DNA of 64,000 bases from Corallococcus coralloides (GTDB lineage: Bacteria > Myxococcota > Myxococcia > Myxococcales > Myxococcaceae): NCBI RefSeq assembly GCF_044792175.1, contig NZ_CP172866.1. One strand, given 5' to 3'. The notes under the pieces are model-generated. The model saw only the letters and a list, made by a program, of their open reading frames with translations. It searched no databases and was not told the DNA's origin. Every line of letters begins with the position of its first letter. The first letter of the stretch is position 1. Of this stretch, positions 18,931-48,067 are shown in pieces. Both the position numbers and the translations under genes were made by a program.

Positions 18931-19680
18931 ATGGCACAGATCAAGCTTGGAGAACTGCTGATCAAGGCGAACGTCCTGCAGGAGAGCCAGCTCAAGGCGG
19001 CGCTCGCCGAGCAGGCCAAGTGGGGCGGGAAGCTGGGCGAGATCCTCGTCCGGATGAACCTCGTCTCCGAGGACATCCTCGTGCGCGCCCTGTCGAAACA
19101 GTTGGGCATGCCGGCGGTGAACCTGGACTCCGTGCAGATGGTGCCGCCGCACGTGAAGGCCAAGATTCCGGCGCAGACGGCGCGCGACTTCTCCGTGGTG
19201 CCGCTGCAACTGCGCGACGACGGCAAGACGCTGGTCGTCGCCATGTCGGATCCGCTCAACGTGCGCGTGCTGGACGAGCTGCGCGCCCTGTCCAAGTGCC
19301 GCATCGTGGCCAACGTGGCCGGGCGCACCTCCGTGGCGCGGGCGTTCGCGCGCCTCTACGAGGAGACGGCGGAGCTGGAGGACGCGGACACCAACTTCAA
19401 GGTGGTGGACGCCCAAGGCCGCACCGTCGTGAAGAACCTCAAGGACCTGGACCCGGCCGCCGCCGTCGCCATGTCCCCCAAGCCCGCCGCCGCTCCGCCG
19501 CCCCGCCAGGCCCCCCCGCCGGAGGCGCCGCGCGCGGCCTCGGGCAGCCCCGCGGAGCTGCTCAAGAGCGTGGAGGAGGTCCAGCGCAAGGAGGTCGCGG
19601 CGCTGAAGGCCATGGTGGAGCTGCTCATCGAGAAGGGCGTTTTCTCCCGCGAGGAATACCTCGCCAAGGTCAAGCGGTAG
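18931..19680 (+). CDS. stand-alone MshEN (GspE N-terminal, T2SSE_N) domain protein; candidate c-di-GMP receptor
   Basis: Two consecutive 24-residue MshEN motifs, IKLGELLIKANVLQESQLKAALAEQ and KLGEILVRMNLVSEDILVRALSKQ. No ATPase domain. Pro-rich linker and a conserved C-terminal helix. Confidence 0.75.
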   Translation: MAQIKLGELLIKANVLQESQLKAALAEQAKWGGKLGEILVRMNLVSEDILVRALSKQLGMPAVNLDSVQMVPPHVKAKIPAQTARDFSVVPLQLRDDGKTLVVAMSDPLNVRVLDELRALSKCRIVANVAGRTSVARAFARLYEETAELEDADTNFKVVDAQGRTVVKNLKDLDPAAAVAMSPKPAAAPPPRQAPPPEAPRAASGSPAELLKSVEEVQRKEVAALKAMVELLIEKGVFSREEYLAKVKR

Positions 19681-19689
19681 CCCCCGGCC

Positions 19690-20693
19690 ATGCGCAAGAA
19701 GATTGGTGAACTCCTCGTCCAGGCCGGAGTGGTGACGGACGAGCAGGTGAAGCAGGCCCTCGCGTCCGGACGGCGCGGCCAGGGCCGCAAGCTGGGTGAG
19801 GTGCTGGTGTCCATGGGCCTGTGCACGGGCCGGGACATCGCGCGGGCGCTGGCGGCGCAGCACGAGCTGCCGTTCGTGGAGATCCCCGAGTACATCCCGC
19901 ATGCGGTGTCCTCGCTGGTGTCCATGGACTTCCAGACCGAGCACCGGGTGCTCCTCTTCGCGGCGGAGCAGGACGGCCGCAGCGAGAAGATCCACGTCGC
20001 GGTGGAGGACCCGGGCAACCTGATGCTGGTGGACGAGCTGCGCTTCCAGCTTCGCAAGCCGCTGAAGGTGTTCGTCGCCGCGCCGGATGACCTGGAGCAG
20101 GCGTTGTCGCGCGGCCGGGGCGAGCCCCTGGACATCGTGGAGGCTGAACCGATGGACATGGACGAGGACGATTCGCCGGACATCCTGACGTCTCCGCCGC
20201 CCCCGCCCGCCGCCGCGCGCGCGCCCACGCCGCCGCGTCCGCCCGCGCCGGCGCTGGACTGGGACCTGCCGCCGCCGCCGCCCAACGAGTCGGGCGTGGA
20301 CGGCGCGGAGGTGCTGGAGGACATCCTGGGCTCCACGCCCCGTCCCAAGGTCCCCAAGGCCCCGCGTCCGCCGCCCCCGCCCGCCGCGGCCCGTCCGCCG
20401 CCGCCTCCGCCCCCCGCGGAGCCGGAGGACCCGAGCAAGCCGCGCGTCCCGGTGGTGCTCTTCGGCGGCGCCGCGCAGGGCGTGAAGCCGTCCGTGGCGC
20501 TCACGCCCAAGCCGGACTTCTCCGAGGAGGACCTGGCGGTGCTGGACGACATCGACCGCATCTCGCGCGGCGAAGAGGCCAGCCTGGACACGGAGAAGGT
20601 GAAGCCCGCGCGCATGGTCGCGAGCCTCATCCGCCTGCTCATCCGCAAGGGGCTCATCCAGGAGGCGGAGTTCCTGGAGGAGCTGGCCCAGAA

Positions 20694-20697
<4 letters not shown>
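19690..20697 (+). CDS. stand-alone MshEN domain protein paralog with long Pro-rich linker
   Basis: Motifs [24 protein letters not shown] and [24 protein letters not shown]. The C-terminal helix is similar to the upstream paralog. Its stop overlaps the next start (GTGA). Confidence 0.75.
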
Positions 20698-23184: not shown

Positions 23185-23865
23185 GTGGGCGGTGAAGGGG
23201 ATGGCACCCGTGGCTTCATGGGCACTGGGGGAAGTTTGGCACCCGAAACCTCAGACGAGCAGTTGATGCTCGCCTTCCAGGCGGGAAACGCGCGTGCGTT
23301 CGAAGCGTTGGTGCGCAAGCACCGCGCGCCGGTGTTCAACTTCATCCTGCGCTTCGTGGGCCACCGGGCGCGGGCGGAGGACGTGCTGCAGGAGACCTGG
23401 CTCAAGGTGGTCCGCAGCGCCCGGGAATACGAGCCCAAGGCCCGGTTCACGACCTGGCTGTACACCATCGCGAGGAACCTCTGCGTGGACAGCACGCGCA
23501 AAGAGAGCTACCGCCAGGCGACGTCCCTGGAAGCCCCCTCGGCGGGTGCCGACGGCGACGAGGGACGTCCGCTGGGCGAGGGGCTGCCGGACGCCGGGGC
23601 CAGCCCGGAGCGCGGCGCGCACAACGCCCGCCTCCGGCCCCTGCTGGAGCGGGCCCTGTCGGCCCTGCCGGAGGAGCAGCGCGAGGTGTTCGTGCTGCGC
23701 GAGTACAGCGGCATCCCGTTCAAGGAGATCGCCGAGGTGACGGGCGTGTCCGAGAACACGGTGAAGAGCCGCATGCGCTACGCGCTGGAGGGCCTGCGCC
23801 GCCGCCTGGGTGAGCTGGGCGTGGACGGCGACCTGTCGGAGGATGGAAGGACGGTGGCGGGATGA
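23185..23865 (+). CDS. ECF (group IV) sigma-70 factor
   Basis: Region 2 (FEALVRKHRAPVFNFILRFV) and region 4 (FVLREYSGIPFKEIAEVTGVSENTVKSRMRYAL) signatures. The start is uncertain and may be the ATG 33 nt downstream. Confidence 0.85.
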   Translation: MGGEGDGTRGFMGTGGSLAPETSDEQLMLAFQAGNARAFEALVRKHRAPVFNFILRFVGHRARAEDVLQETWLKVVRSAREYEPKARFTTWLYTIARNLCVDSTRKESYRQATSLEAPSAGADGDEGRPLGEGLPDAGASPERGAHNARLRPLLERALSALPEEQREVFVLREYSGIPFKEIAEVTGVSENTVKSRMRYALEGLRRRLGELGVDGDLSEDGRTVAG

Positions 23866-25310: not shown

Positions 25311-25613
25311 ATGACCGATGCGGCCGGGGCCCGGGTCCTGGATAATGGGGACATGACGTCGGACGTGCACGCTCCCCCCGTGAACAGCCCCCGGAAGTCG
25401 CCGCCGCGCTCCCCGCGCCGGGCCCGCCGTGGCCAGGCCATGGTGGAGTACTCGATGATCAACTGGGTGTTGATCGTCGGGCTCGTCATCGGCGCCACGG
25501 TGAAGATCCGCTGGACGGACGACCGGCAGACCAACGTCATCGACCTGTTCCTCGAGGCGTATCAGATTTATTACGACTCGTTTTACTTCGTGCTGAACCT
25601 GCCGTTCCCCTGA
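25311..25613 (+). CDS. Flp/Fap-family (type IVc) pilin precursor
   Basis: Class III signal-peptide motif RRG-QAMVEYSMINWVLIVGLVIGATV (G-xxxx-EY) followed by a hydrophobic helix. Lies immediately upstream of cpaB/tadB/tadC. A GGGAAGGG RBS is upstream. The leader is unusually long, basic and Pro-rich. Confidence 0.65.
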   Translation: MTDAAGARVLDNGDMTSDVHAPPVNSPRKSPPRSPRRARRGQAMVEYSMINWVLIVGLVIGATVKIRWTDDRQTNVIDLFLEAYQIYYDSFYFVLNLPFP

Positions 25614-25845
25614 GGGACGCCAGGGCCGCGGATCAACCCGCTGCGTCGAGCCGTCCTCCCCCTGGGCGGGCAGGCTCCGTGAGCGCTGGAGGTCCCGGGA
25701 TTCCGCTTTGTCACGAGAGGTGGTTTTGACACCCGATGTGGGGCATGGCTAACATCTTGCTCCGTTCGCGCCCTGGCATCGCCCCCTCGTCCAAAGCAGT
25801 CCTGCCGCCACGACGGCGCCCCACCGTTCTGGAGGACCTTGAACC

Positions 25846-26664
25846 ATGTTGAAGGGTAAGACCCCGCTCGTCGTCGCACTGGTGCTCGGTTTGCTCGCGG
25901 GCATCGTGGCCTACTCGGCCATCAAGAAGAAGGAATCGGATGTGCGCCGCGGGTGGAACCTGGTGCCCGTGGTGGTGGCGGGCCAGGACATGCCCGAGGG
26001 TTCGGTCATCACGTACGAGATGATCTCCCAGCGCTCCGTGCCGGAGCAGTTCGTCACCTCGTCGGTGGTGAAGCCGGACTCCGCCAACTACATCGTGAAC
26101 CAGAAGGTGCTGGTGGCGCTGCAGGCCGGCGACCCCATCCTCTGGAGCCAGTTCGAGACGACGAAGGCCGCCGAGCGCCTGTCCACGAAGGTGCAGAAGA
26201 AGGCGCGCGCCATCACCATCGAGGCGAAGCAGACCACGTCCGTGGGCGGGTGGATCCGCCCCAACGATCACGTGGACATCATCGGCACGTTCCGCGATCC
26301 GCAGACGGACGAGAGCGTCGCGGTGACGCTGCTTCAGAACATCATCGTGGTCGCCACGGGCAAGATCACCGGCACCACGAACATCAACCTCATCCCGGAG
26401 AACCAGCGCGAGTACTCCAACGTCTCGCTGATGGTGCTGCCGGAAGAGGCGGAGATCCTGGTGCTGGCGGCGGAGCTGGGGCAGTTGACCCTGTCCCTGC
26501 GCAACGAGGACGACGTGGACCTCATCGAGGAGCGTGGCCGCGCGACCATCAGCACGCTGCTCTCCGGTGAGCGCACCCGCGTGCTGGAGCAGAAGCGCCG
26601 GGAGATCATCCAGATCATCAAGGGCAGTGGCGGCGGCGAGAAGGCCTCGGCCGGAGCTCCGTAG
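25846..26664 (+). CDS. cpaB: Flp pilus assembly protein CpaB (RcpC) family
   Basis: N-terminal TM anchor followed by SAF and CpaB periplasmic domains. Positioned between the pilin and tadB. Confidence 0.85.
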   Translation: MLKGKTPLVVALVLGLLAGIVAYSAIKKKESDVRRGWNLVPVVVAGQDMPEGSVITYEMISQRSVPEQFVTSSVVKPDSANYIVNQKVLVALQAGDPILWSQFETTKAAERLSTKVQKKARAITIEAKQTTSVGGWIRPNDHVDIIGTFRDPQTDESVAVTLLQNIIVVATGKITGTTNINLIPENQREYSNVSLMVLPEEAEILVLAAELGQLTLSLRNEDDVDLIEERGRATISTLLSGERTRVLEQKRREIIQIIKGSGGGEKASAGAP

Positions 26665-26742
26665 TCGTCGCGCGCGGGGCCGCTTCGCCAACGCTGAAGC
26701 GGCCCTGCCGACCCCTCCCTCATCCCCCGGGGATTCGCGCCC

Positions 26743-27588
26743 ATGCTCGCAGGTATCGTCCTCCTTCTCGTCACCGGCTCGGTGTTCTTCTTCAGCCTGG
26801 TGATCTTCAGCGTCCTGTCGAAGGCGTATGAGCAGTACCAGGAGCGCTACGTCGCCAAGTCGATGAACGACTTGAGCGACATGTTCCTCTTCATCGACGC
26901 GCGGCAGATGTTGATCCTCAACATCGCCTGCATGTGCCTTCTGGGCATCCTCAGCTACATCATCTTCAACCCCATCCTGGCGGTGCTCGCGACCATCTTC
27001 GGCTTCTTCCTGCCGATGCTGCTCGTGAAGCACTACCGCAAGCGCCGCATCAAGAAGTTCAACGTGCAGTTGGTGGACGCGCTGCAGGCCATGGCCAACG
27101 CGTTCAAGGCGGGCCTCACGTTCCCGCAGGCCATCGAGCACGTGGCGCGCGAGGCGCTGCCGCCCCTGTCCCAGGAGTTCGGCCTCTTCGTGAAGGAAGT
27201 GAAGCTGGGCGTGCCGCTGGAGGAGGCGCTCATCAACATGGGCCGCCGCGTGGGCAGCGACGACCTGGAGCTGGTGGTGGTGTCCACCAACATCGCGCGC
27301 CAGTTGGGCGGCAACATGGCGGAGATGTTCGAGACCATCTCCACGGTGATCCGCGAGCGCTTCCGTCTGGAAGGCAAGATCGACGCGCTGACGTCCCAGG
27401 GCAAGCTTCAAGGCTGGATCGTGGCGGCCATGCCGGCGGTGCTGGGCATGGTGCTCAACTACATGCGTCCGGACCTGATGGAGCCGATGATGAACCACAT
27501 CTTCGGCTACATCCTGGTGACCCTGATCGCCATCATGGAGATCATGGGCATCCTCATCATCCGGCGCATCGTCAACATCGACATCTGA
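26743..27588 (+). CDS. tadB: TadB-like (GspF-fold) inner-membrane platform protein
   Basis: 281 aa with N-terminal TM helices, a cytoplasmic T2SSF domain and C-terminal TM helices, as is typical of TadB/CpaG. Confidence 0.85.
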   Translation: MLAGIVLLLVTGSVFFFSLVIFSVLSKAYEQYQERYVAKSMNDLSDMFLFIDARQMLILNIACMCLLGILSYIIFNPILAVLATIFGFFLPMLLVKHYRKRRIKKFNVQLVDALQAMANAFKAGLTFPQAIEHVAREALPPLSQEFGLFVKEVKLGVPLEEALINMGRRVGSDDLELVVVSTNIARQLGGNMAEMFETISTVIRERFRLEGKIDALTSQGKLQGWIVAAMPAVLGMVLNYMRPDLMEPMMNHIFGYILVTLIAIMEIMGILIIRRIVNIDI

Positions 27589-27601
27589 AGCGAGGCGCAC
27601 C

Positions 27602-28492
27602 GTGCAGGAAGTCCTGACATTTCTGCTGATGGGCGGCTCGGCACTGCTGACCGCGGGCGCGGTGGCGTTCCTGGGCATCGGCCTGTACACCAACCTCCTG
27701 GAGCGCTTCCTCACGGAAGTCCGCGACGAGTCCGCGGGCGGCATGAAGGGCGCGGGCTCCGTCGCCATCCGCAAGCTGGGCGCGATGAACCGGCGCTTCA
27801 TGTGGCCGGGCTACGAGTCCAAGACGCGCCGCAAGCTGATCAAGGCGGGCGAGCCGTCCCAGTACAAGCCCGAGGACATCATGGCGCTGCAGGAGGTGAG
27901 CGCCTTCCTGGGCCTGCTGGTGGGCCTGTTCGTCGCCAACGGCATCGGGGCGAACCTGGCGTGGTCGCTGCTGGTGATGCTGCTGGGCCTGTTCTATCCG
28001 CTCATCTGGTTGAACGACCAGGTGAAGCGCCGTCACCTGGCCATCAGCCGCGCGCTTCCGTACAACCTGGACCTGCTGACTCTGTCGGTGGAAGCGGGCA
28101 TGGACTTCACGGGCGCGCTGGCGAAGGTGGTGGAGAAGGGCCGCCAGGGGCCGCTGCGCGAGGAGCTGCAGTTGGTGCTCAAGCAGCTCAAGATGGGCAA
28201 GACGCGTGAAGAGGCGCTCAAGGGCATGATCGTGCGCGTGGACCTGCCGTCGCTGACGACGTTCGTCACGGCGCTGATCCAGGCGGACAAGATGGGCACG
28301 AGCCTGGGCAAGGTGCTGCGCATCCAGTCCACGCAGATGCGCATCGACCGCACGCAGCGCGCGGAGAAGCTGGCGGGCGAGGCACCGGTGAAGATGCTCT
28401 TCCCGCTCATCGCGTGCATCTTCCCGACGGTGTTCATGGTGCTCTTCGGGCCCATCGTGTTCCAGTTCATGTTCGGCAACGTCGGGGGCTAG
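27602..28492 (+). CDS. tadC: TadC-like (GspF-fold) inner-membrane platform protein
   Basis: 296 aa. Second T2SSF-domain paralog, typical of TadC/CpaH. Confidence 0.85.
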   Translation: MQEVLTFLLMGGSALLTAGAVAFLGIGLYTNLLERFLTEVRDESAGGMKGAGSVAIRKLGAMNRRFMWPGYESKTRRKLIKAGEPSQYKPEDIMALQEVSAFLGLLVGLFVANGIGANLAWSLLVMLLGLFYPLIWLNDQVKRRHLAISRALPYNLDLLTLSVEAGMDFTGALAKVVEKGRQGPLREELQLVLKQLKMGKTREEALKGMIVRVDLPSLTTFVTALIQADKMGTSLGKVLRIQSTQMRIDRTQRAEKLAGEAPVKMLFPLIACIFPTVFMVLFGPIVFQFMFGNVGG

Positions 28493-28565
28493 TCCTCTGC
28501 CCATCCTGCTCACCATCACCCAGGGGCTCCAGGTTGGACGGGAGCTCGCCTTCGAGCAGGCCGAA

Positions 28566-31457
28566 GTGAAGATCGGCCGGACCTCGGAGAACGACCTGGT
28601 CCTGCATGACCACGGTGTCTCCCGGCGTCATGCCCGCATCACGGCGAGGGATGGGCGTTACTTCGCCGAGGACGTTGGCAGCGCGAACGGCACGCAGTTG
28701 AACGGCCAGCCGCTGGGCGGCCAGAAGCAACTGCGCGACGGCGACCGCATCACCGTGGGGCCGGTGGAGTTCACCTTCGTGTGGGTGGCGCCGGAGGATG
28801 ACGACGACGTCACCCGGCCCATCCGGCGGATGCTCGCGCCGCCGCACGCGAAGGTGTCTCCGCAGGGCGTGGAGCAGGCCTCGCTCGCGGAGATCGAAGC
28901 GGCGCCCACGAGCTACCAGCCGTCGATGCCGGCCATGGCCCGGCCCGCGTCCCCGCCGCGCCCGGGGATGGCCGTGCCCGCCGCGAAGGGTGGGGCGATG
29001 CCGATGCCGGCCGCCACGCCGAAGCGGCCCTCCGCTCCGGATCTACCGGCGGTTGGTGCCTCCGCGCCGGGGGCGGCTGCTCCGGCCCGGACGCCTCCGG
29101 GGCCTCCCGTGCTTGGGGCCTCCGCGCCGGGCCGGGCTGCACCGGGAACTCCCGTGCTGGGCACGCCCACGCCGGGGGCGGCGGCTTCGCCCAAGCCTGG
29201 TGTGCAGGGAGCCTCTGTTCCGGCGACTCCGCCCCGGCCTCCCTCGGGTCCGCCTGCGCTGGGCGCCTCTGCGTCCTCTGCTTCGGGCAAGGTTCCCGCC
29301 GCGCCTTCCGTGGTGGGGAGCCTGGGGCAGGGCGCGACCGCGCCGGCCAGGACTCCCGCGGGCCCTCCGGTGTTGGGTCCCGCGGCTCCCGGCGAGGGTT
29401 CCCCGGCCAGGGCTCCTGCGGCTCCCCCGGTGCTGTCGGCCGGGAACAAGGCCTCGGGAGCTTCCGCCGCCGTCCGTGCCTCCGGGCCGGGACCGTCCTT
29501 GGCGGCCCGGGGCGCAGCGGCTTCGTCACCCGGCCTGCCGTTGATGTCTCCGCCGGGGCTGATGGTTCCGCCTCCTCCCGCACGGCCTCTCGCCGTGCCT
29601 CCTCCCGTGGAGCTGGCCCCCGTGGCGCCGGACGAGCCCGAGGAGCGCACGCTGATGGCGATCTCCACGGTGGACTCGCCCGTGCCCGCCGCCACGCCGC
29701 CTCCCGTGCTGTCCCTCCCGGACATGGACGAGCCCGAGGAGCGCACGCTGATGGCGATCTCCACGGTGGACTCGCGCGTGCCCGCCGCCGCGCCGCCTCC
29801 CGTGCTGCCTCTCCCGGAGCTGGACGAGCCCAACGAGAGCACGCTGATGGCGATTCCCACGGCGGACCTGGCCGTGCCCGCCGCCACACCGCCCCCGGCG
29901 CTCTCCTTCCCGGAGCTGGACGAGCCCGAGGAGCGCACGCTGATGGCGATTCCGGCGACCCCGGAAGCGCCACCGGTTCCCGTCGCGCCGCCGCCGCAGG
30001 AGGCCCCGCCCGCGCTGCCCCCGCCGGCGATGGAGGAGCCCGAGGAGCGGACCGTCCTCGACCTCCGGCCCATCACGCCGGTCAAGCCGCTCGTGGCCCC
30101 TCCGGTGCGCATCGTGAGCGCGCCCGCCGCCGCGCTCGACTCCAGCGAGCCCTCGACCTTCGTCGGCCAGGACGATGACCTCTCCGCGGCCCCCGAGGAG
30201 ACCCGGGCCTCCGGGACCTTCTCGGGCCAGGTCGCGCCCGGACCCGCCGCACCGGCCGCGGCGCCTCCGCCGGCCTGGAGCCCTCCCGTCCCGCCGCCTT
30301 CCGAGGAGCCGGTGACGTTCGTCGGCCACGACCGCGCCCCGCCTGCCCCGGCCCTGGACCCCGGGCTGCTGACGGGCGAAATCCCACTGCTGGCCCATGT
30401 GCCCGCTCCGGACGCGGAGGGTGAAGCCACCCTGCCCGTGCCGGCCAACCTGGATGAGTCCGCCACCCAGCCCGCGCCAAGGGGCCCGGTGACGGTCGTC
30501 GCGAAGGTCGAGCCCTCGTCCGCCGCCGACAAGGCCCGCCAGCGGCGCCAGTTGGGCAAGACGCTCAAGGGCCGGTTCCTCCTCTTCTGGCAGCGCCAGT
30601 CGCTGCCCAGGCGCATCGGCTTCGCGTCGCTGGCGGGCGTGGCCGTGCTGGGCGTGCTGACGCTGCTCGTGGCGCTCGCGGCCCCCTCGGCCATCCGGCT
30701 CCCGGGCCGCGAACCCTTCACGCTGGGCATGGAGCCGGTGCCGGACTCCTTCGGCCTGGGCGAAGGGGTGCGCTGGGTCCACGCCGACGACAAGCTCTTC
30801 GACTTCCGCTTCGTGTCCCCCACGCGCGCCGTGGCGGTGCTGCACTACCAGGCCAGCAACATCGCCCGGGACGAGGTCAACCTGTCCCTCAACGGCGTGT
30901 CCCTGGGCTGGGTGCCCCCGGATACCGCCCAGACGGCCGAGCGTGAGCTGGAGCAGGTCCTCCCGCCCAGCCTCCTGCGGCGCAACGCCAACAACCAGCT
31001 CCTCTTCGACAACGCCCTCAACCCGCCCGGCCGCGACCCCTGGCGCATCTGGAACCTGCGGCTGGAGATCATCCCGGTGCCGGAACTGCCGCCGGATCAG
31101 CTCATCACCTCCGCCCGGGAGGCCGCCAAGGCAGGGGCCCGCTTCTACGAACTCAAGGACGTGGGCGCGGAGAACCTGTTCAAGGCGTGGCGGGAGTACC
31201 GCGCCGCGTGGATCACCCTGGAAGCGCTGGACGACAAGCCGGAGCTCTACGAGGACGTCCGGGAGCGGATCGCCCAGATTTCAACGGAGCTGGACCACCG
31301 CTGCAGCCAACTGATGATGCAGTTCCAGCGGGCGGTTCAGTTCCGCAGCCGACGGGATGCGGTCGCCACCCTGGAAGACGTACGGAGACGCTTCCCTACG
31401 GCCGAGCATCGCTGCCACAATCTCGCGCTGGAAAAAGCCTATGAGCACGAGCTTTAG
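28566..31457 (+). CDS. bitopic FHA-domain protein (cytoplasmic FHA, Pro-rich repeat linker, one TM helix, periplasmic C-terminal domain)
   Basis: FHA signature GRTSENDLVLHDHGVSRRHARI...GSANGTQLNG. TM helix at RRIGFASLAGVAVLGVLTLLVALAA. The FHA beta-1 region (PILLTITQGLQVGRELAFEQAE) is encoded in-frame upstream of the first canonical start, so the true start probably lies near 28497. Confidence 0.8.
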   Translation: MKIGRTSENDLVLHDHGVSRRHARITARDGRYFAEDVGSANGTQLNGQPLGGQKQLRDGDRITVGPVEFTFVWVAPEDDDDVTRPIRRMLAPPHAKVSPQGVEQASLAEIEAAPTSYQPSMPAMARPASPPRPGMAVPAAKGGAMPMPAATPKRPSAPDLPAVGASAPGAAAPARTPPGPPVLGASAPGRAAPGTPVLGTPTPGAAASPKPGVQGASVPATPPRPPSGPPALGASASSASGKVPAAPSVVGSLGQGATAPARTPAGPPVLGPAAPGEGSPARAPAAPPVLSAGNKASGASAAVRASGPGPSLAARGAAASSPGLPLMSPPGLMVPPPPARPLAVPPPVELAPVAPDEPEERTLMAISTVDSPVPAATPPPVLSLPDMDEPEERTLMAISTVDSRVPAAAPPPVLPLPELDEPNESTLMAIPTADLAVPAATPPPALSFPELDEPEERTLMAIPATPEAPPVPVAPPPQEAPPALPPPAMEEPEERTVLDLRPITPVKPLVAPPVRIVSAPAAALDSSEPSTFVGQDDDLSAAPEETRASGTFSGQVAPGPAAPAAAPPPAWSPPVPPPSEEPVTFVGHDRAPPAPALDPGLLTGEIPLLAHVPAPDAEGEATLPVPANLDESATQPAPRGPVTVVAKVEPSSAADKARQRRQLGKTLKGRFLLFWQRQSLPRRIGFASLAGVAVLGVLTLLVALAAPSAIRLPGREPFTLGMEPVPDSFGLGEGVRWVHADDKLFDFRFVSPTRAVAVLHYQASNIARDEVNLSLNGVSLGWVPPDTAQTAERELEQVLPPSLLRRNANNQLLFDNALNPPGRDPWRIWNLRLEIIPVPELPPDQLITSAREAAKAGARFYELKDVGAENLFKAWREYRAAWITLEALDDKPELYEDVRERIAQISTELDHRCSQLMMQFQRAVQFRSRRDAVATLEDVRRRFPTAEHRCHNLALEKAYEHEL
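29631..30060 (+). repeat. about 4.3 copies of a 96-bp in-frame tandem repeat encoding LPxxDEPEERTLMAISTVDSxVPAAxPPPVLx
   Basis: The unit gacgagcccgaggagcgcacgctgatggcgat... recurs at about 29631, 29727, 29823 and 29919, with a decayed copy near 30030. Confidence 0.8.
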
Positions 31458-31484
31458 GGCCCGTGCCCCCCTCAGCAGGACGCG

Positions 31485-33233
31485 GTGACCTCCATGTCGA
31501 ACGCACCACCCCCCGCCCGCCGACGGCCTACATCTGGCACGCCCTCCTCCGGGACCGGTTCGCGCGCGCCGGTCCGCCGGTCGTCCGCCGGTGCCGCCGC
31601 GGCCCGCCCCGCGAAGCTCGTCGTCATCGCCGGCCCCATGGAGGGTGAGGAGTTCGCGCTCTCCGAGCTCGAGTACACGGTCGGCCGCTCCACCGACAAC
31701 CCCATCTGCATCCAGGACACGTCCGTCTCCCGCAAGCACGTGACGCTGCGCAAGGAGTCCGCCGGCTGGATGGTCAGTGACATGGGCTCCGGCAACGGCA
31801 CCATCGTCAACGGCGAGCCCATCTCCGAGGAGACGCTCCTCGCCAACGGCGACGTCATCACGCTGGGCGACTCGGAGCTGCGCTACGAGGACACCGCCAA
31901 CAGCACCGCGAAGGTGCAGGCCCCCACCGGCCCCCGGCCCCGTCCATCCTCGGCGGCGGGCCGCGGTTCCACGGCCGTGCCCACGCGCCCCGCCCGCGAG
32001 GGCCGCGCGCGCCCGCAGACGTCGCGGGCCGCCGCCGCCGCGGAGCTCTCGCCGGAGGTGCAGCGCAAGCGCATGCGGATGAAGCTCGCGGGCGCCGCCG
32101 TGCTGGTGGTGCTCTTCGCGGGCCTGGGCGTCGCGCGCTCGCGCATGCGGCAACAGGCGGAGGAGCAGGGCCGCATCGAGGCGGAGCAGCGCAGCTACCG
32201 CGAGCAGTTGGGCGGCCTCTTCCAGGAGGCGAAGAACCTGGTGCGCGAGGGCCAGTGGCAGCAGGCCAAGGCGAAGCTGGAGGAGCTCCACGCGCAGGCG
32301 CCGGACTACCCCGGCGTGGCGGACTACCTGAAGGCCGCGGAGCGGGAGATCCCCAACCAGAACCACCTGAGCACGGCCCAGGCGGCGCTGGACAAGGGCC
32401 AGTTGGCCAGCGCGAAGGCGTCCATCGAGAAGGTGACCAGCGACACCCAGCTCTACGAGCAGTTGAAGACGGCGCGCAAGAACCTGACGGACGCCGCCGA
32501 CACGCGCACGAAGGAGGCCAAGCGGCTGCTGGACACCCGCCAGTTGGAGAACGTGCAGCAGGCCAAGGCCATCACCGACGACGTGCTCGCGACCTTCCCC
32601 GAGCACCGCGACGGCAAGCTGGTCAACGACGACGCCGTGCGCGTCATCGCGGACCTGACGCGTCCGGACCCCGTGCGCGTGGCCGCGGCGCCCAAGCCGT
32701 GGGAGCCCGCCGTGGACCGCTTCCGCGACGGTGACATCACCGGCGCGGTGGCCATCCTCAACGCGTGCGCGGCCAAGACGTCCCAGTGCAAGCAGTTGAT
32801 GGCGCAGGTGACGGAGTTCGGCAACCTCTACAAGAAGCTGGAGGACCTGGACGCCAAGGGCCTCACCCGCCTGCTCGCGCTGGACAAGGACATCACCGAC
32901 GGGCGCGCCAGCAAGATGGCGCGCAACGCGGGCACCCGCGCGGGCAACATCTATTACAAGAGCGCCGCGGGCGCGAAGGCCGCCGGCCAGTGGTCGCGCG
33001 CCATGGAGTTCGCCCGCCGCGCGCTCCAGGCGGACCCCAGCCACGCGGGCGCCGCCAACATCGTCAACGACCTCAAGGGCAAGGCGAAGGACCTGTACAT
33101 GCAGGCCTACTCCATCAAGGACTCCAGCCCGGAGGACGCGCTGCCCAAGTTCCGCGACGTCGTCGCGATGACGCCGCCCGACGACGAGCTGCACGGCAAG
33201 GCCCAGGGCTGGGTCGAGAAGCTGTCGCGATGA
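31485..33233 (+). CDS. second bitopic FHA-domain protein with TM helix and TPR/coiled-coil-like periplasmic domain
   Basis: Complete FHA domain (LVVIAGPMEGEEFALSELEYTVGRSTDNPICIQDTSVSRKHVTL...GSGNGTIVNG). TM at MKLAGAAVLVVLFAGLGVA. Stop overlaps the xseA start (ATGA). Confidence 0.8.
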   Translation: MTSMSNAPPPARRRPTSGTPSSGTGSRAPVRRSSAGAAAARPAKLVVIAGPMEGEEFALSELEYTVGRSTDNPICIQDTSVSRKHVTLRKESAGWMVSDMGSGNGTIVNGEPISEETLLANGDVITLGDSELRYEDTANSTAKVQAPTGPRPRPSSAAGRGSTAVPTRPAREGRARPQTSRAAAAAELSPEVQRKRMRMKLAGAAVLVVLFAGLGVARSRMRQQAEEQGRIEAEQRSYREQLGGLFQEAKNLVREGQWQQAKAKLEELHAQAPDYPGVADYLKAAEREIPNQNHLSTAQAALDKGQLASAKASIEKVTSDTQLYEQLKTARKNLTDAADTRTKEAKRLLDTRQLENVQQAKAITDDVLATFPEHRDGKLVNDDAVRVIADLTRPDPVRVAAAPKPWEPAVDRFRDGDITGAVAILNACAAKTSQCKQLMAQVTEFGNLYKKLEDLDAKGLTRLLALDKDITDGRASKMARNAGTRAGNIYYKSAAGAKAAGQWSRAMEFARRALQADPSHAGAANIVNDLKGKAKDLYMQAYSIKDSSPEDALPKFRDVVAMTPPDDELHGKAQGWVEKLSR

Positions 33234-34945
33234 AGAAGCGCAAGGGGTTGGAGCCGCCCCCGGCCGACGAGCCGGGGCAGGGCGACCTGTTCGGCACGTC
33301 GCTGCTACCCCCCTTGCGTCCCGCGCCGGCGAAGGCCGCCAGCGGAGGCAGGCCGCCCCCGGCCCCGCCCACCGCGCCGGTGGCTGAAGTCGCCGCGCCG
33401 CCGCCGCCCGCCGCCGTCACCCCGCCGCCGCGCCCCGAGCGCACGGTGCTGTCGGTGGGCGAGCTCACCCGGCAGATCAAGCAGACGGTGGAGTCGCGCT
33501 TCCCGCGCGTGATGGTGCGCGGCGAGGTGTCCAGCTTCCGGGGCGCCAACGCGCGCGGCCACTGGTACTTCACGCTCAAGGACCCGGACGCCTCCATCGA
33601 CGCGAAGGTGTGGGCGTCCATGGCCAGCCGCATCCGCTTCGCGCTGCGCGACGGCATGGAGGTCGTGGCCGAGGGCAGCGTGGACCTGTACGAGCCGCAG
33701 GGCCGCTACAGCCTCATCGTGTCCCGGCTGGAGCCGGTGGGCGAGGGCGCGCTGGCGCTCGCGTTCGAGCAGCTCAAGCAGCGGCTGGCGGCGGAGGGGC
33801 TCATCGGCGACCGGCGCGTGCGGCCGCCCCGGCCCGTGCCGTTCCTGCCCCGGCGCATCGGCGTCGTGACGAGCCGCACCGGCGCGGCGCTCCAGGACTT
33901 CCTGCGCGTGCTGCACTCGCGCAACCCCCGGCTGGGCGTGCTGCTGGCGGACGCGCGCGTGCAGGGGGAGGGCTCCGCGGAGGACGTGGCGCGGGCCATC
34001 GAGCGGCTCTCGCGCACCGACGTGGACGTCATCGTCGTGACGCGCGGCGGAGGCTCCGTGGAGGACCTCTGGACGTTCAACGAGGAGCGGGTGGCGCGCG
34101 CCATCTTCGCCTCGCCCGTGCCGGTGGTGTCCGCCATCGGCCACGAGATCGACTTCACCATCTCCGACTTCGTCGCGGACCTGCGCGCGCCCACGCCCAG
34201 CGCGGCGGCGGAGCGGCTGGCGCCGGTGCTGGCGGACCTGGAGCTGACGCTGGCCACGCAGTCCGGCCGGCTGCGCCGGGCCATGGAGCGCCGGGTGCTG
34301 GAGCTGCGCGAGCGCCAGGGCCAGCTCCGCGCGCGGCTGCCGGACCCTCGCCGCGAGGTGAACCACCAGCGCCTGCACCTGTCCGAACAGGTGGAGGCGA
34401 TGATGCGCGTGCTGCGCCCCCGCGTGCGTCAGGACCGGGAGACCTTGCGCGCCTTGCAGGAGCGGCTGCAGCGGGCGCGGCCCCAGACGCGGCTGTCGGA
34501 GCAGCGGGCGCACCTGCTCAAGCTGGCCATGCGCCTGTCGGACGCCGCTCGCGCGGGCGTCACCCGGCGGCGGGGCGCGCTGGCGGACGCGCGGCTGGGG
34601 CTGGAGCGGCAGTCCCCCACGGCGCGGGTGGCGGCCGAGCGGGCGAAGGTGGCCCAGGCGCGAGCGCGGCTCCTGGAGCTCCAGCGGGGAATGCTGGCCT
34701 CCGCGCAGACGCACTTCGGACGGCTGGGCGGCCGCCTGGACGCCCTGAGCCCCCTGAAGGTGATGTCGCGCGGCTACGCGGTGACGTTCCGCCAGCGGGA
34801 CGGCGTGGTGGTCCGCTCCATGGCGGACGTGGTGGTGGGGGACGTGCTGGGCATCAAGCTGGCGGCCCACGGGGCGAAAACCCTGGGTGGGTGTGAAGAA
34901 ATCGAAGCGACCGTTACCAGCCTGAAAGGCCCGGTGGACTGCTAG
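33230..34945 (+). CDS. xseA: exodeoxyribonuclease VII large subunit
   Basis: The 32765..34945 ORF was trimmed to the ATG at 33230 (MKKRKGLEPPP). It has an OB-fold N-terminus, catalytic core VTRGGGSVEDLWTFNEE and a long coiled-coil C-terminus. Confidence 0.9.
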   Translation: MKKRKGLEPPPADEPGQGDLFGTSLLPPLRPAPAKAASGGRPPPAPPTAPVAEVAAPPPPAAVTPPPRPERTVLSVGELTRQIKQTVESRFPRVMVRGEVSSFRGANARGHWYFTLKDPDASIDAKVWASMASRIRFALRDGMEVVAEGSVDLYEPQGRYSLIVSRLEPVGEGALALAFEQLKQRLAAEGLIGDRRVRPPRPVPFLPRRIGVVTSRTGAALQDFLRVLHSRNPRLGVLLADARVQGEGSAEDVARAIERLSRTDVDVIVVTRGGGSVEDLWTFNEERVARAIFASPVPVVSAIGHEIDFTISDFVADLRAPTPSAAAERLAPVLADLELTLATQSGRLRRAMERRVLELRERQGQLRARLPDPRREVNHQRLHLSEQVEAMMRVLRPRVRQDRETLRALQERLQRARPQTRLSEQRAHLLKLAMRLSDAARAGVTRRRGALADARLGLERQSPTARVAAERAKVAQARARLLELQRGMLASAQTHFGRLGGRLDALSPLKVMSRGYAVTFRQRDGVVVRSMADVVVGDVLGIKLAAHGAKTLGGCEEIEATVTSLKGPVDC

Positions 34946-34986
34946 CGGGCCACCCTCTACATTCCGCGCCCCGCTCGGGGAGGTGG

Positions 34987-35325
34987 ATGGCCGTGGCGAA
35001 GTCGGACAAGAACCCCAAGGTGGAGCCCGCTCCGGAGCAGTACGGAGACGTGGTGTCGCGCCTGGAAGAGACGGTGGCGCGGCTGGAAGGCGGCGACCTG
35101 TCGCTGGAAGAGTCGCTCAAGGCGTTCGAGGAGGGCATCCGCCTCGTCCGCCGGGGCGAGAAGCTGCTCACGGAGGCCGAGCAGCGCATCGAGCAGTTGC
35201 TGGTGGACGAGGACGGCCAGGACGTCGTGGCGCCGCTGGCGGTGGCGGCCCGGCCCGCTCCCCAGGCTGCCCCCCGGACGACCGCGCAGGCGCGTCCGCC
35301 ACCGGAGGACGATGTCCCGTTCTAG
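34987..35325 (+). CDS. xseB: exodeoxyribonuclease VII small subunit
   Basis: 112 aa with the helical XseB signature LEETVARLEGGDLSLEESLKAFEEGIRLVRRGEKLL. Confidence 0.85.
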   Translation: MAVAKSDKNPKVEPAPEQYGDVVSRLEETVARLEGGDLSLEESLKAFEEGIRLVRRGEKLLTEAEQRIEQLLVDEDGQDVVAPLAVAARPAPQAAPRTTAQARPPPEDDVPF

Positions 35326-39243: not shown

Positions 39244-40806
39244 TCACTGCCTGACGGCGCGGTACTCGGGCAGCGTGAGGGCCTGGACCAGGTTGTTGCC
39301 CACGCGCATCCACAGCCGCCCGCCGTCATCCACGGAGCAGGACAGGCTGCTGGAGACCTCGTAGCGGAACAGCTCGCCCTGTTCCGCGGAGTCCACCGCG
39401 ACGATCTCCTGGGGCAGGGCGCCCGCCACGTTCGGGCCGGTGAGCAGGTAGAACTCCGGGCTCGTCGGCAGGCCCAACTGCACCTGGTGGATGCGCAACT
39501 GCCCGGACGCGTCCACGGACGTGCCGCCCTTGTTCATCACCAGGCCGCTCGTCGAGTTCAGGAACCACACGCGCTGGTCTCCAATGGCCGCCACCTTCGA
39601 GCCGCCGTGGAACGGGAGCAGGAAGCGGATGGGCACCGGGAACGTGGTGCTGGACCAGCGGTACGCGTTGCCCTCGCAGCCCGCGGCCTCCGTGGAGCAG
39701 GCCTCGATGCGCGACTGGTTGTTGGCGAAGTCGAAGGACATGTAGAGCGTGGACCCGTCCACGCTGAACGACGCGGGCGGCGGCGCGCTGATGAGGCCGT
39801 TGTACGTGTAGATGATGCGCGTGCTCACCGGTTGGAGGTCCGCGCTCGTGGCGTTCGCGTCCAGCGTGGCGATCTCGATCTGCAGGGCGTCCCCGCCGCC
39901 CCCCGCGTTGTTCGGGTAGGCCACCAGCACCTGCTGGCCCTTCTCCTTGGGCGGGGTGATGGGCTGCAGCGGCGCGTTCTCGAACGTCCACTGGAAGGAG
40001 CCGCCGGACGCCGTGTGCTTGAGGCGCGACACCGTGTACAGGTCGTTCACCAGCGCGTCGCCGTTGGCCATCACGGACAGGTTCTGCAGCTTGTACGTGG
40101 GCGCGGTGCGGCCGGTGATGGCGAAGTTGGCGTCCACCGCCACCGCGCCCGTGCCGGGCGTCCACACCCACCGCTTGCCGCTCTGGGCGTTGACGCTGGT
40201 GATGACCGTCGCGGAGCTGCACGGGATGCCCATCTCCACCGAGTTGCGCACCACGCCCGCCGAGTCCACGCGGAAGAGCGTGCCGGAGCCCGTGGTGGGG
40301 TTGCCGCACCCGATGAAGGCGACGTTCGTGCCGCTGCCCTCGGCGATGAAGAAGTCCGTCACCACCTGGCCGTTGGGGTCCGGATCCTTGATGACCTTCG
40401 CCACCGGCAGGAACGTGGCCGCCTGCGGCTGGGACACGTTCGTCCGGCCGTCCGCGCACGTCGCCCGCGCGTTGAGCGACAGGCTCGCGGCGAGCCCGCG
40501 GGTGTACTTGATCTCATTCGAGGCCAGCTCGAAGTCCATGGACCCGCTGGTGTAGGCCACGGTCTTCAGGAACGTGTCCCGGTCGTAGATGTCCACCCGC
40601 GACACGGCGTCACACCCGGACACGATGACCCGCACCGTCAGCGACGGGGCCGCCGTGTTGGGCTGCGGCACGGTGAGCGTCACCGTCGGCGGGTCCGGAG
40701 TGGGGGCCGGCTTCTCACCACCACAGGCGGTGAACACGGAAGCACAGAGGGTCAGCGAGGCCAGGAGGGCCCGCGGCGCGAACGGGCGCGAAGGGACGGA
40801 GTGCAT
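39244..40806 (-). CDS. secreted lipoprotein of unknown function (Cys-rich, likely beta-rich fold)
   Basis: The 39244..41031 ORF was trimmed to the ATG at 40804-40806 (MHSVPSRPFAPRALLASLTLCASVFTACGG), which has a signal peptide and lipobox. Convergent with tlyA. Confidence 0.6.
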   Translation of the reverse strand: MHSVPSRPFAPRALLASLTLCASVFTACGGEKPAPTPDPPTVTLTVPQPNTAAPSLTVRVIVSGCDAVSRVDIYDRDTFLKTVAYTSGSMDFELASNEIKYTRGLAASLSLNARATCADGRTNVSQPQAATFLPVAKVIKDPDPNGQVVTDFFIAEGSGTNVAFIGCGNPTTGSGTLFRVDSAGVVRNSVEMGIPCSSATVITSVNAQSGKRWVWTPGTGAVAVDANFAITGRTAPTYKLQNLSVMANGDALVNDLYTVSRLKHTASGGSFQWTFENAPLQPITPPKEKGQQVLVAYPNNAGGGGDALQIEIATLDANATSADLQPVSTRIIYTYNGLISAPPPASFSVDGSTLYMSFDFANNQSRIEACSTEAAGCEGNAYRWSSTTFPVPIRFLLPFHGGSKVAAIGDQRVWFLNSTSGLVMNKGGTSVDASGQLRIHQVQLGLPTSPEFYLLTGPNVAGALPQEIVAVDSAEQGELFRYEVSSSLSCSVDDGGRLWMRVGNNLVQALTLPEYRAVRQ

Positions 40807-41247
40807 GGTTTCGCACTCTAGCGCGCTCCCTCGGGAAGCGGGCGGGGCCACCTCCCCCGCGCCTTCCCCCGGCTCCCTGATCGCGAGATCCCCTGAAAAC
40901 CCCCAGCAGGCGCCTGCACGTCCGCTAGGCCTCCGGCCGGACGAAGAGGGTGGTATTGGAAGAAAGTGACAGCCTGGCTGTTTTCGTGGGATTCCCGCCC
41001 GGCAAGGGCTGGGCGGGCGGTTTCCGGTCACCGGACCGTCACGCGCGTGCGGGATTCCGGAGGAAGAACGCCGGTCCGGGGTATACGTCGCGCGCCTTTT
41101 CCCACCCCTCTCTCATGAGGAGAGCCCCGTTCATCCGCTGGCCCGCGGACGGGTTAGACGGCATGATCCGGAATCGACCATGACTCCTTTCGCACCCAAC
41201 GGGTTTCCGCGACGTCGTTCCCTGTCTGGGCGGGGCGGAGGCGCGCC

Positions 41248-43761: not shown

Positions 43762-43766
43762 CCCGC

Positions 43767-46555: not shown

Positions 46556-46897
46556 ATGGCACAGGGTGAAACGGGCATCATTGGCAAGGGCATCGTCATC
46601 AGGGGCAACCTCACGGGCGGAGGGGACCTGGTCATCGAGGGGCGCGTGGAGGGGCAGATCGCCCTGAAGAACCACCTCACCATCGAGGGCACCGGCAAGG
46701 TGCAAGCGGACATCCGCGCCGAGGAACTGACCATCAACGGCGAGGCGAGCGGCAACATCGACGCCTCCACGCGCGTGGCCATCAACGCCTCGGCGAAGGT
46801 CGCGGGCGACATCAAGGCCCCGCGGGTCATCATCGAGGACGGCGCCGTGTTCAACGGCTCCATCGAGATGGACGTGAAGTTGCCGGACGACATCTAG
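46556..46897 (+). CDS. bacN: bactofilin (DUF583) cytoskeletal protein, BacN-like
   Basis: 113 aa of beta-helical bactofilin repeats (VIEGRVEGQIAL...INGEASGNIDAS...KVAGDIKAPRVIIEDGAVFNGSIEM). It is the first of three tandem paralogs. Confidence 0.85.
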   Translation: MAQGETGIIGKGIVIRGNLTGGGDLVIEGRVEGQIALKNHLTIEGTGKVQADIRAEELTINGEASGNIDASTRVAINASAKVAGDIKAPRVIIEDGAVFNGSIEMDVKLPDDI

Positions 46898-46959
46898 CAT
46901 CCACCGGGGACCGACCCACGGCCCCCCATGCGCACAGCTTCGAGAAGGCGGACACACTC

Positions 46960-47283
46960 ATGGCGAATACGATCATTGGCTCGAGCATCGTCATCGACGG
47001 AGAGATTTCCGGTGACGAGGACCTGGTCATCCAGGGCACCGTGAAGGGGAAGATCTCCCTCAAGGAGAGCCTCTACGTGGAGGGCTCCGGCGTCGTCGAG
47101 GCGGACATCGAGACGCAGAACGTGGAGATCGCCGGCCGCGTGACGGGCAACATCGCCGCCAGCGACAAGGTGGAGCTGAAGACGGACTGCCGCGTGGTGG
47201 GCGACATCAAGGCCCCGCGCATCCTCATCGCCGACGGTGCCTCCTTCAAGGGCAACGTCGACATGGACATGAAGGAGCGCTGA
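46960..47283 (+). CDS. bacO: bactofilin, BacO-like
   Basis: 107 aa with the same bactofilin repeat architecture. Confidence 0.85.
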   Translation: MANTIIGSSIVIDGEISGDEDLVIQGTVKGKISLKESLYVEGSGVVEADIETQNVEIAGRVTGNIAASDKVELKTDCRVVGDIKAPRILIADGASFKGNVDMDMKER

Positions 47284-47286
47284 TCC

Positions 47287-48006
47287 GTGGCGACCGCGAA
47301 GGATCTTGCAGGCAACGCCGTCGACAACACCGTGGTGGGGCCCTCCATCCTCATCAGCGGTCGGCTCACGGGTGACGAGGACCTCACGGTCCGCGGGCGC
47401 GTCGAGGGTGAGCTCACCCTCAGCCGCACCCTCATCGTGGAGCCGTCCGGCGTGGTGAAGGCCAACGTGGCGGTGAAGAACGCCATCGTGAGCGGCGTGG
47501 TGGTGGGCAACATCAACGCCACGGAGAGCGTGGAGCTCACCCGCGAGGGCCGCATGGTGGGCGACATCCGCGCCCCCCGCGTCATCATCGTGGACGGGGC
47601 CAGCTTCCGCGGCCGCGTGGACATGGGCGACGTGGAACCGGGCCGGCTGCCGTCCGAGCGCCCCGCCGTGGCCCGCCCCCAGGCGGTGACGCGCCCCACG
47701 GTGCGTCCGGGCGCCACCCCGCCGCGTCCTCCGACGCCGCCGGCCGCCCCGCCGCGCGCCGCTCCGACGCCGCCGCCCCCGCCTCCCGCGCGCACGCAGC
47801 CCGCGACGACGGCGCCGGCCACCGTCGTGGCGCGTCCGTCGGCCAAGCCGCTGCCGCCGCCCCCGCCGCCCGCCGCCACCACGACCCGGGCGCCGGAGCC
47901 TCCGCGTCCGGCCGCCACTGAGCAGGCGAGCAGTGCTGGCGCGCCCGTTCCCCGCGTGATGGGTGCTGGCGCGAAGAAGAAGGTCGTGGTGAAGAAGTCC
48001 CGTTAG
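47287..48006 (+). CDS. bacP: bactofilin with about 120-aa Pro-rich C-terminal tail, BacP-like
   Basis: Bactofilin core followed by [25 protein letters not shown]..., ending in [10 protein letters not shown]. Confidence 0.85.
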
Positions 48007-48067
48007 AGCCCGCCCGCCGCGCCGTCGTTTCCGGCGGCGCGGGGGTGGAACAACCGGGGGTGCCACC

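Follow-up and report, generated by a model that had tools for sequence, protein, structure and literature searches.

A stretch of 64,000 nucleotides from Corallococcus coralloides (contig NZ_CP172866.1 of assembly GCF_044792175.1; hereafter the window) carries six plus-strand genes side by side at positions 25311–33233, which encode a 100-amino-acid (aa) prepilin-like open reading frame (ORF), CpaB, TadB, TadC and two proteins with an FHA domain and one transmembrane (TM) segment, FHA1 and FHA2. Judged by gene content and order, this locus is the positional ortholog of kil cluster II of Myxococcus xanthus (MXAN_4648-4661), and it very probably provides, in Corallococcus, the half of the Kil Tad-like pilus machine that is embedded in the envelope. 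In M. xanthus, deletion of kilB, kilG or kilH abolishes contact-dependent prey lysis, and KilG-NG localizes to the contacts with prey (PMC8460266).

Because the G+C content of the window is 69–75%, genes were called over its whole length by third-position GC bias (GC3). All six frames are open with coding-type GC3 values of 0.87–0.97, and the gene spacings from kilB onward are 78, 13, 4 and 27 bp. The original prediction, made from the sequence alone, had described a pilin-like gene, cpaB, tadB, tadC and two FHA genes as contiguous and co-oriented, and both the GC3 calls and the profile searches agree with this description. When the six proteins were compared with Pfam, as had been proposed, the RcpC and SAF domains, two T2SSF domains and two FHA domains scored above their cut-offs, whereas the 100-aa ORF matched no model. 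The window CpaB is 100% identical in CP034669.1 and in Corallococcus whole-genome shotgun contigs, and FHA2 matches proteins bearing the names Corallococcus sp. M7 and C. coralloides at 95–96% identity. For the comparative analysis, a one-genome-per-species scan with CpaB yielded 80 Myxococcota loci, and tblastn of the window proteins against these showed them to be collinear with the window. KilB, KilG and KilH are 92–100% identical among the retrieved Corallococcus loci, which carry about ten species names, and 75–95% identical across families.

The assignment to cluster II is based on gene order. In the window, the order is ECF (extracytoplasmic function) sigma factor, zf-HC2 anti-sigma factor, kilK, kilB, kilG, kilH, FHA, FHA-TPR (tetratricopeptide repeat) and xseAB, with the downstream flank running through xseA, xseB, a response regulator, ispA and dxs on to bacNOP-padC. 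In Myxococcus, including M. xanthus AM003 (L034), the ECF sigma and anti-sigma genes are followed by five genes, a 75-aa ORF, two further genes, KilB, KilG and KilH, and then by an FHA gene (484 aa), an FHA-TPR gene (583 aa) and xseA. Supplementary file 1 of Seef et al. 2021 describes cluster II, MXAN_4661-4648, as beginning at its edge with a 'putative zinc-finger' protein (4661), followed by KilM, a TadG-like protein and KilL (4660, 4659 and 4658), by proteins of unknown function (4657, 4656, 4654 and 4653) that flank KilK (4655), by KilB, KilG and KilH (4652, 4651 and 4650), and by FHA (4649) and FHA-TPR (4648) proteins (PMC8460266). The Myxococcus locus matches this published table both by gene and by domain. 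In M. xanthus, padC is MXAN_4634 and lies immediately downstream of bacNOP; the window contains 14 genes from FHA2 to the ParB-like gene that follows three bactofilin genes, which puts FHA2 at the MXAN_4648 position (4648 − 14 = 4634). In addition, the window KilB shares 31 of 34 residues with one block of the published M. xanthus KilB row. Positional orthology thus draws on the collinearity, the match to the published table, the padC count and the KilB block. The original prediction had suggested a split Tad-like architecture matching Kil of M. xanthus and had proposed a synteny comparison with the kil clusters; orthology, gene order and flanks all match cluster II, with which the locus is collinear. 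Coordinates and the supporting scores are collected in Table 1.

Table 1. Features of the Corallococcus kil locus and its immediate flanks (positions in the window)
Feature	Position	Strand	Evidence
ECF-type sigma factor	23185..23865	+	Sigma70_r2 67.9 bits, Sigma70_r4_2 61.8 bits; directly upstream of the anti-sigma gene
zf-HC2 anti-sigma factor, MXAN_4661 ortholog, 476 aa	23862..25292	+	zf-HC2 24.9 bits (cut-off 22.2); NCBIfam anti-sigma E = 5.8e-9
kilK ortholog, small Flp-like adapter minor pilin, 100 aa	25311..25613	+	motif; orthology to the Myxococcus KilK-position ORF
Sigma-70-like promoter candidate, TTGACA-18-TAACAT	25726..25755	+	10/12 matches; in the 232-bp kilK-kilB spacer
kilB (CpaB/RcpC family), N-terminal membrane anchor, SAF and RcpC domains	25846..26664	+	TIGR03177, RcpC
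kilG (TadB/CpaG-like inner-membrane platform)	26743..27588	+	T2SSF 64.6 bits (cut-off 25.2)
kilH (TadC/CpaH-like inner-membrane platform)	27602..28492	+	T2SSF 70.3 bits (cut-off 25.2)
FHA1, MXAN_4649 ortholog, 986 aa	28497..31457	+	FHA 70.8 bits (cut-off 20.7); Yop-YscD_cpl 54 bits
96-bp tandem repeat in the FHA1 linker, 3.3 copies	29630..29950	+	Tandem Repeats Finder score 495, 87% matches
FHA2, MXAN_4648 ortholog, 582 aa	31485..33233	+	FHA 68.8 bits (cut-off 20.7); Yop-YscD_cpl 71.8 bits; TPR matches
xseA (33230-34945) and xseB (34987-35325), exonuclease VII	33230..35325	+	Exonuc_VII_L 340 bits, Exonuc_VII_S 64.7 bits

In Tad systems, the CpaB-family protein bridges the platform to the secretin. 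The window KilB matches TIGR03177 with 190 bits (cut-off 71) and Pfam RcpC with 81 bits, in addition to SAF, and is 90–92% identical to Myxococcus KilB. KilG, which has three hydrophobic segments, is 95% identical to its Myxococcus ortholog, and KilH is 82–83% identical. Elsewhere in the comparison set, the metagenome-assembled genome (MAG) loci L058, L071, L075, L076 and L078 contain a second kilB-like gene (76–81% identical to the query KilBs), an orphan with no kilG or kilH after it. In L058, L071 and L078 this gene is preceded by a distant ECF-sigma-like gene (26–28% identity), and the MAG JBGALX01 has an orphan kilB-like copy as well as a full locus.

The 100-aa ORF upstream of kilB carries a class-III prepilin signal (...RRARRG/QAMVEYSMINWVLIVGLVIGATV...) in which Gly occupies −1 and Glu +5, and a hydrophobic helix follows. 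The predicted cleavage motif G/QAMVEY, starting from 25431 and preceded by a long basic leader of 33–47 aa, is the sole prepilin motif of this kind within a genuine coding frame of the window. Across the 60-aa mature part, the protein is 78% identical to the KilK-position ORF of Myxococcus sp. Y35; the motif RGQAM[VL]EYS and the C-terminal sequence NVIDLF..YYDS.Y.VLNLPFP are kept in about 70 loci, and public annotation also places a 100-aa gene at the kilK position. Because Pfam and NCBIfam gave no Flp match, the pilin call rests on the motif and on KilK orthology; the M. xanthus-type KilK is likewise unmatched by the Flp_Fap model. In M. xanthus, KilK is the adapter minor pilin that docks tip complexes onto the KilP fibre (PMC12075869), and the fibre itself is made of KilP (MXAN_5121), encoded at a separate locus. 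By position and motif, the small ORF is the ortholog of KilK and not of the major pilin KilP. A KilP identity, considered in view of the similar length and long leader, was not adopted, without comparison to a KilP sequence, because the ORF occupies the kilK position (directly after MXAN_4656 in Myxococcus) and KilP belongs to another locus. The "Flp-type pilin" of the original prediction therefore stands in its prepilin motif and its orthology to KilK; the ORF fails the hidden Markov models, an outcome which that prediction had itself named as refuting the call, and the protein is predicted to be an adapter and not a fibre pilin.

Pfam scans of the approximately 55 GC3-supported genes in the 64 kb detected no T2SSE ATPase, secretin, Peptidase_A24, ParA/CbiA-type (TadZ-like) or TadE-like domain. 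The supermatrix of Seef et al. provided a 235-aa KilF fragment of M. xanthus, which had no six-frame match in the window (best E = 0.42). Both results agree with the earlier statement that the 64 kb contain no CpaF/TadA, CpaC/RcpA or TadV/CpaA gene. No TadD or TadE/F/G gene was found in the window either, and tblastn with KilL, KilM and KilN was also negative. For a KilF-proximity test, 84 related loci were fetched with about 10 kb around kilB, and none of them (0/84) had a KilF-like match within that distance, which argues that the locus is not a degenerate core lacking parts. Two candidates for a local ATPase were rejected: the 476-aa gene upstream of kilK, considered as the missing CpaF, is the zf-HC2 anti-sigma factor, and two genes at 18931–20697, considered as hidden T2SSE ATPases, contain the MshEN domain only and no T2SSE domain.

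The last two genes of the cluster had been described as encoding bitopic FHA proteins with a cytoplasmic FHA domain, one TM helix and a periplasmic domain, and the FHA scores, the single hydrophobic segment found in each protein and the predicted C-terminal folds bear this out. In FHA1, about 600 aa of Pro/Ala-rich linker join the cytoplasmic FHA domain to one TM helix (a single hydrophobic segment, residues 706–736 of 986), beyond which lies a folded periplasmic C-terminal domain of about 250 aa; identity to the Myxococcus protein drops from 77% N-terminally to 58% C-terminally. In FHA2, the cytoplasmic FHA domain and one TM helix (residues 197–219 of 582) are followed by a predicted periplasmic all-alpha TPR solenoid, and the protein is 60–62% identical to its Myxococcus ortholog. 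The AlphaFold2 model of the FHA1 C-terminal region (predicted local distance difference test, pLDDT, 90.6) contains a beta-sandwich of jelly-roll type, resembling a carbohydrate-binding module (CBM), and a helical bundle, and that of FHA2 (pLDDT 89.3) is all helical, with a TPR solenoid after a long helix and TPR-type Foldseek matches. No solved structure with sequence similarity to the FHA1 C-terminal region was found; its homologues were found only among Myxococcota-labelled or unnamed metagenome proteins, nearly all with an N-terminal FHA domain, and the FHA-TM genes are specific to this myxobacterial lineage. Both proteins keep the GR, SxxH and NG residues for phosphothreonine binding, which are at least 90% conserved within their families, and linking the FHA pair to Ser/Thr-phosphorylation-dependent control is therefore a reasonable reading of the sequences. 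Each periplasmic domain also has a near-invariant cysteine pair, at residues ~937/~974 of FHA1 (C248/C285 in alignment A1; ~31305–31420) and ~427/~434 of FHA2 (C239/C246 in alignment A2; ~32760–32790). These pairs may form disulfides, and their near-invariance fits placement in the oxidizing periplasmic compartment.

The start of FHA1 is unusual. Its first ATG, GTG or TTG codon lies at 28566 and would remove the first strands of the FHA domain, whereas in the kilH-FHA junction alignment the GTG start of the M. xanthus group falls opposite a CTG at 28497, 4 nt past the kilH stop (TAG). The CTG is kept in every Corallococcus kilH-FHA1 junction examined and also in Citreicoccus, M. eversor, Pyxidicoccus, Hyalangium and Archangium (noted in L001–L016, L024, L046, L049, L051 and L055), and in every complete locus the FHA1 reading frame extends back to this codon without a stop. 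CTG 28497 is thus most likely the true start, and its conservation suggests either a non-canonical start codon or termination-reinitiation coupling at FHA1. In the CP034669.1 annotation, FHA1 is broken into ORFs of 229 and 598 aa, neither with a domain match, a miscall that most likely stems from the conserved CTG start.

FHA1 length varies from 986 aa here and about 940–1090 aa in other Corallococcus to about 450–620 aa elsewhere and about 1385 aa in M. dinghuensis (L052). The difference lies in the Pro/Ala-rich linker (28800–30560), which has 20–27% Pro per 100-residue window and is expanded by roughly 500 aa; the 96-bp repeat within it encodes ...EPEERTLMAISTVDS.VPAA.PPPVL.. units. Between Corallococcus strains, FHA1 is only 57–79% identical, as opposed to 92–100% for KilB, KilG and KilH.

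The promoter candidate lies 90 bp upstream of kilB, and shuffles of this region of 72% GC gave an expectation of 0.0 such sites. The motif TTTTGACAC-N17/18-[CA]TAACAT is kept upstream of kilB in about 25 loci of Myxococcaceae and Archangiaceae, belonging to Corallococcus, Myxococcus, Pyxidicoccus, Hyalangium, Archangium and Cystobacter. At the other end, the xseA ATG overlaps the FHA2 stop (ATGA, 33230–33233), as it also does in L001 (17416–17419); public annotation has the same 4-nt overlap, and xseA follows the FHA-TPR gene in most related loci. The promoter, the short spacings and the ATGA overlap suggest one transcription unit from kilB into xseAB, with kilK transcribed by read-through from the ECF sigma and anti-sigma genes, and exonuclease VII appears, from the overlap, to be translationally coupled to the kil operon; xseAB is genomic context and not a demonstrated part of the machine. 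The ECF sigma gene, for which a near-identical public locus annotates the start at the equivalent of 23266, is syntenic and 83–99% identical in most related loci, and the anti-sigma protein has one TM segment at residues 94–114.

The main difference between the Corallococcus and Myxococcus loci concerns the genes between the anti-sigma factor and kilK. The block kilM4-kilN4-kilL4-4657-4656 encodes Tip4, a tip complex with killing activity independent of the type III secretion system (T3SS*) in M. xanthus, and KilK is reported to serve several tips (PMC12075869). The Tip4 block and 4653 are missing from all 16 Corallococcus-type loci, in which kilK starts 18–80 bp after the anti-sigma gene. Myxococcus, Pyxidicoccus, Citreicoccus, Hyalangium and related MAGs carry the block between anti-sigma and kilK. 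Archangium, Cystobacter and Vitiosangium have the six genes kilM4-kilN4-kilL4-4657-4656-kilK in reverse orientation, as one unit between the anti-sigma gene and kilB (L022–L029, L039, L054–L057 and L062), which is consistent with the Tip4-kilK block being one mobile transcription unit. A more distant MAG group is also compact and keeps only the FHA-TPR gene. Since the sister genera and the neighbouring family have the Tip4 block, parsimony favours its having been lost or moved in the Corallococcus lineage. One record labelled Corallococcus terminator BB12-2 (L045, JBLZWL010000017.1) has a Myxococcus-type locus with Tip4 and a KilB that is only 90% identical, like that of M. eversor, and the other C. 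terminator record (L015) is of the compact Corallococcus type; the label or the assembly of L045 may be wrong.

Compared with M. xanthus cluster II, the Corallococcus locus has the same families, order, orientation and flanks, with the ATPase, secretin and peptidase likewise outside the cluster. It differs in having no kilM4, kilN4, kilL4, MXAN_4656, MXAN_4657 or 4653 (4654 was not searched), so that kilK abuts the anti-sigma gene, and in an FHA1 about twice as long (986 versus 484 aa), a CTG instead of a GTG start and a longer KilK leader. It resembles the canonical Tad/Flp systems of Aggregatibacter actinomycetemcomitans and Caulobacter crescentus in CpaB, TadB/CpaG, TadC/CpaH and a small pilin with a G/XXXXEY class-III signal. 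In contrast to those systems, no adjacent TadA/CpaF, RcpA/CpaC, TadV/CpaA, TadZ/CpaE, TadD or TadE/F/G was found, the pilin is missed by Flp_Fap, and two FHA membrane proteins and an ECF sigma/anti-sigma pair are attached. Bdellovibrio bacteriovorus (Bd0108-Bd0119 region) and Bradymonas are reported to belong to the same phylogenetic Tad-like group of predators, and, by the supplementary table of that paper only, their clusters keep more components together (PMC8460266). The FHA proteins share with SctD/PrgH/YscD, type VI secretion Fha1/TagH and gliding GltG the arrangement of an FHA domain in the cytoplasm, a single TM helix and a domain in the periplasm, with Yop-YscD_cpl scores of 54 and 72 bits; their NCBIfam matches to SctD, TagH and GltG are sub-threshold and far under the family cut-offs, those to TIGR02500 (SctD) being 19.5 and 27.4 bits against a cut-off of 86. 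The likeness is limited to the FHA domain, and the predicted periplasmic folds, unlike SctD, have none of the ring-building alpha-beta-beta-alpha-beta motifs. The SctD/PrgH reading of MXAN_4649, as annotated by Seef et al., was accordingly rejected for the periplasmic part; given the low SctD scores and these folds, the published 'PrgH-like' label reflects the FHA domain only.

Taken together, the locus would contribute the platform KilG/KilH, the connector KilB, the adapter pilin KilK and the two bitopic FHA proteins. By analogy with M. xanthus, KilF (an FHA-fused ATPase), the KilC secretin, the KilA peptidase, KilD, KilP and the tip pilins would be encoded elsewhere in the genome, and the complete machine would form where a prey cell is touched, push out a short pilus and bring about the death of the prey. 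In M. xanthus, KilF has an FHA domain of its own, and the cytoplasmic FHA-TPR protein KilD is the first to be recruited (PMC8460266). FHA1 and FHA2 could act as membrane scaffolds or signal couplers, with their cytoplasmic FHA domains binding phosphothreonine partners and with the predicted sandwich and helical bundle of FHA1 and the TPR solenoid of FHA2 contacting envelope glycan or KilB/KilC; the two proteins would then link envelope events to the cytoplasmic FHA network. Alternatively, the pair may stand in for the missing TadZ/TadD as a scaffold for the platform below the secretin. The genes from kilB to FHA2 would form one operon driven by the conserved sigma-70-like promoter, kilK would be reached by read-through from the ECF sigma/anti-sigma pair, and the Corallococcus machine would run without a locally encoded Tip4.

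Several points weigh against this reading. The genes kilM4-kilN4-kilL4-4657-4656 and 4653 have no tblastn match (E <= 1e-3) in the 64 kb, with MXAN_4654 not among the queries. The 100-aa ORF has no Pfam or NCBIfam match at E <= 10, either at full length or as its mature part, and the periplasmic sandwich of FHA1 has weak structural matches (E ~1e-3, TM-score ~0.25 over the whole model). When the 235-aa KilF fragment was compared with a set of 5.8 billion proteins, it returned only fragments of up to 412 aa, none of them labelled Corallococcus, and the partner cluster I, KilP and the tip clusters are ascribed to this genome from the literature and not from its sequence. A comparative paper reports Tad-like (kil) homologues throughout the Myxococcales and includes many Corallococcus genomes in its genome table; the supplements of Seef et al. 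make no mention of Corallococcus (PMC8460266). The evidence for Kil function comes from M. xanthus only, so that prey killing by the Corallococcus copy is a prediction, and our literature search found no published phenotype or characterization of MXAN_4648 or MXAN_4649.

It is possible, although we consider it doubtful, that the locus belongs to the same machine in a functionally shifted form, in which Tip4 has been lost and either other tips together with the needleless T3SS* are needed, or prey sensing and motility pausing take precedence over direct killing. The absence of the Tip4 block and 4653 from the window and from every Corallococcus-type locus, against their presence in other genera, points in this direction, as does the retention of kilK, which fits its reported service to several tips; moreover, Tip4 is the only tip with T3SS*-independent killing in M. 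xanthus (PMC12075869). However, Tip4 could have moved elsewhere in the genome, and of the four tip clusters of M. xanthus, which are partly redundant, three lie outside cluster II, so that local absence says little on the genome-wide repertoire. A bolder version, which we regard as rather unlikely, holds that Corallococcus has a stripped-down Kil, in which Tip4 is truly lost, KilK is kept, and FHA1 has been remodelled to about 1000 aa with a hypervariable, repeat-bearing, Pro-rich spacer that tethers the CBM-like periplasmic domain to the FHA domain in the cytoplasm.

The remaining alternatives deny that the locus is a working part of Kil. CpaB, TadB and TadC are generic Tad components and the window covers just ~25–30 kb on each side, so that an ordinary adhesion-type Tad/Flp pilus, or another non-predatory Tad-like paralog, could have its missing genes just beyond the window; given the positional orthology to kil cluster II, which extends to the housekeeping genes on its flanks, the lack of TadZ, TadE/F/G and TadD genes in the window, the absence of a nearby ATPase from all 84 related loci and the lineage-specific FHA-TM genes, we judge this highly improbable. 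It is harder still to believe that the cluster is a decaying, non-functional remnant of a pilus system without ATPase, secretin and peptidase. Its core enzymatic components are indeed absent locally, and FHA1 has no start codon of the canonical kind and is broken by one public annotation into two ORFs without a domain. Nevertheless, the six frames are intact with their coding-type GC3, KilB, KilG and KilH are 92–100% identical across Corallococcus species and 75–95% across families, the CTG is conserved across genera with an open FHA1 frame in every complete locus, and the promoter motif is conserved. Assignment to kil cluster II as an envelope-embedded half of the machine remains the explanation that we prefer.

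Several neighbouring genes were also recorded. Two adjacent MshEN-only proteins are encoded at 18931–19680 and 19690–20697; two ABC ATPase genes of the oligopeptide type and a DUF2085 gene come after them, immediately ahead of the ECF sigma gene. The MshEN domain, a binding module for cyclic di-GMP, occurs at the N-terminus of ATPases of the GspE/MshE type. Two ORFs have no Pfam match: one of 595 aa on the minus strand (39244–41031), with a coding-type GC3 signature, and one of 772 aa on the plus strand (59255–61573), which is unsupported by a GC3 gene call. Three bactofilin genes followed by a ParB-like gene, at 46556–49438, correspond to the bacNOP-padC chromosome-organization cluster known from M. 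xanthus. A 685-aa all-TPR protein (43596–45653) is found at the position of MXAN_4639, a TPR protein without a known function that Seef et al. list beside the Kil genes (PMC8460266).

The locus does not represent a new kind of machine, as the split architecture of Kil is a fixed feature of Myxococcaceae and Archangiaceae. Cluster II is nevertheless modular: the kilB-kilG-kilH-FHA-FHA core, the promoter motif and the xseAB coupling are conserved, and the tip-pilin block can be deleted, as in Corallococcus, or inverted as a unit, as in Archangium and Cystobacter. This is useful for comparing myxobacterial predation strategies, as well as for annotators, since the MXAN_4649-type gene is miscalled in at least one record (CP034669.1). 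If the stripped-down form of Kil were true, evolution would be able to tune prey range or contact sensing through the tip repertoire and the length of the FHA linker, and MXAN_4649/4648 would provide the missing signalling connection from envelope to cytoplasm, informing KilD/KilF of the point of prey contact. The predicted folds of these uncharacterized FHA membrane proteins offer concrete hypotheses for the unknown contact-sensing step of Kil.

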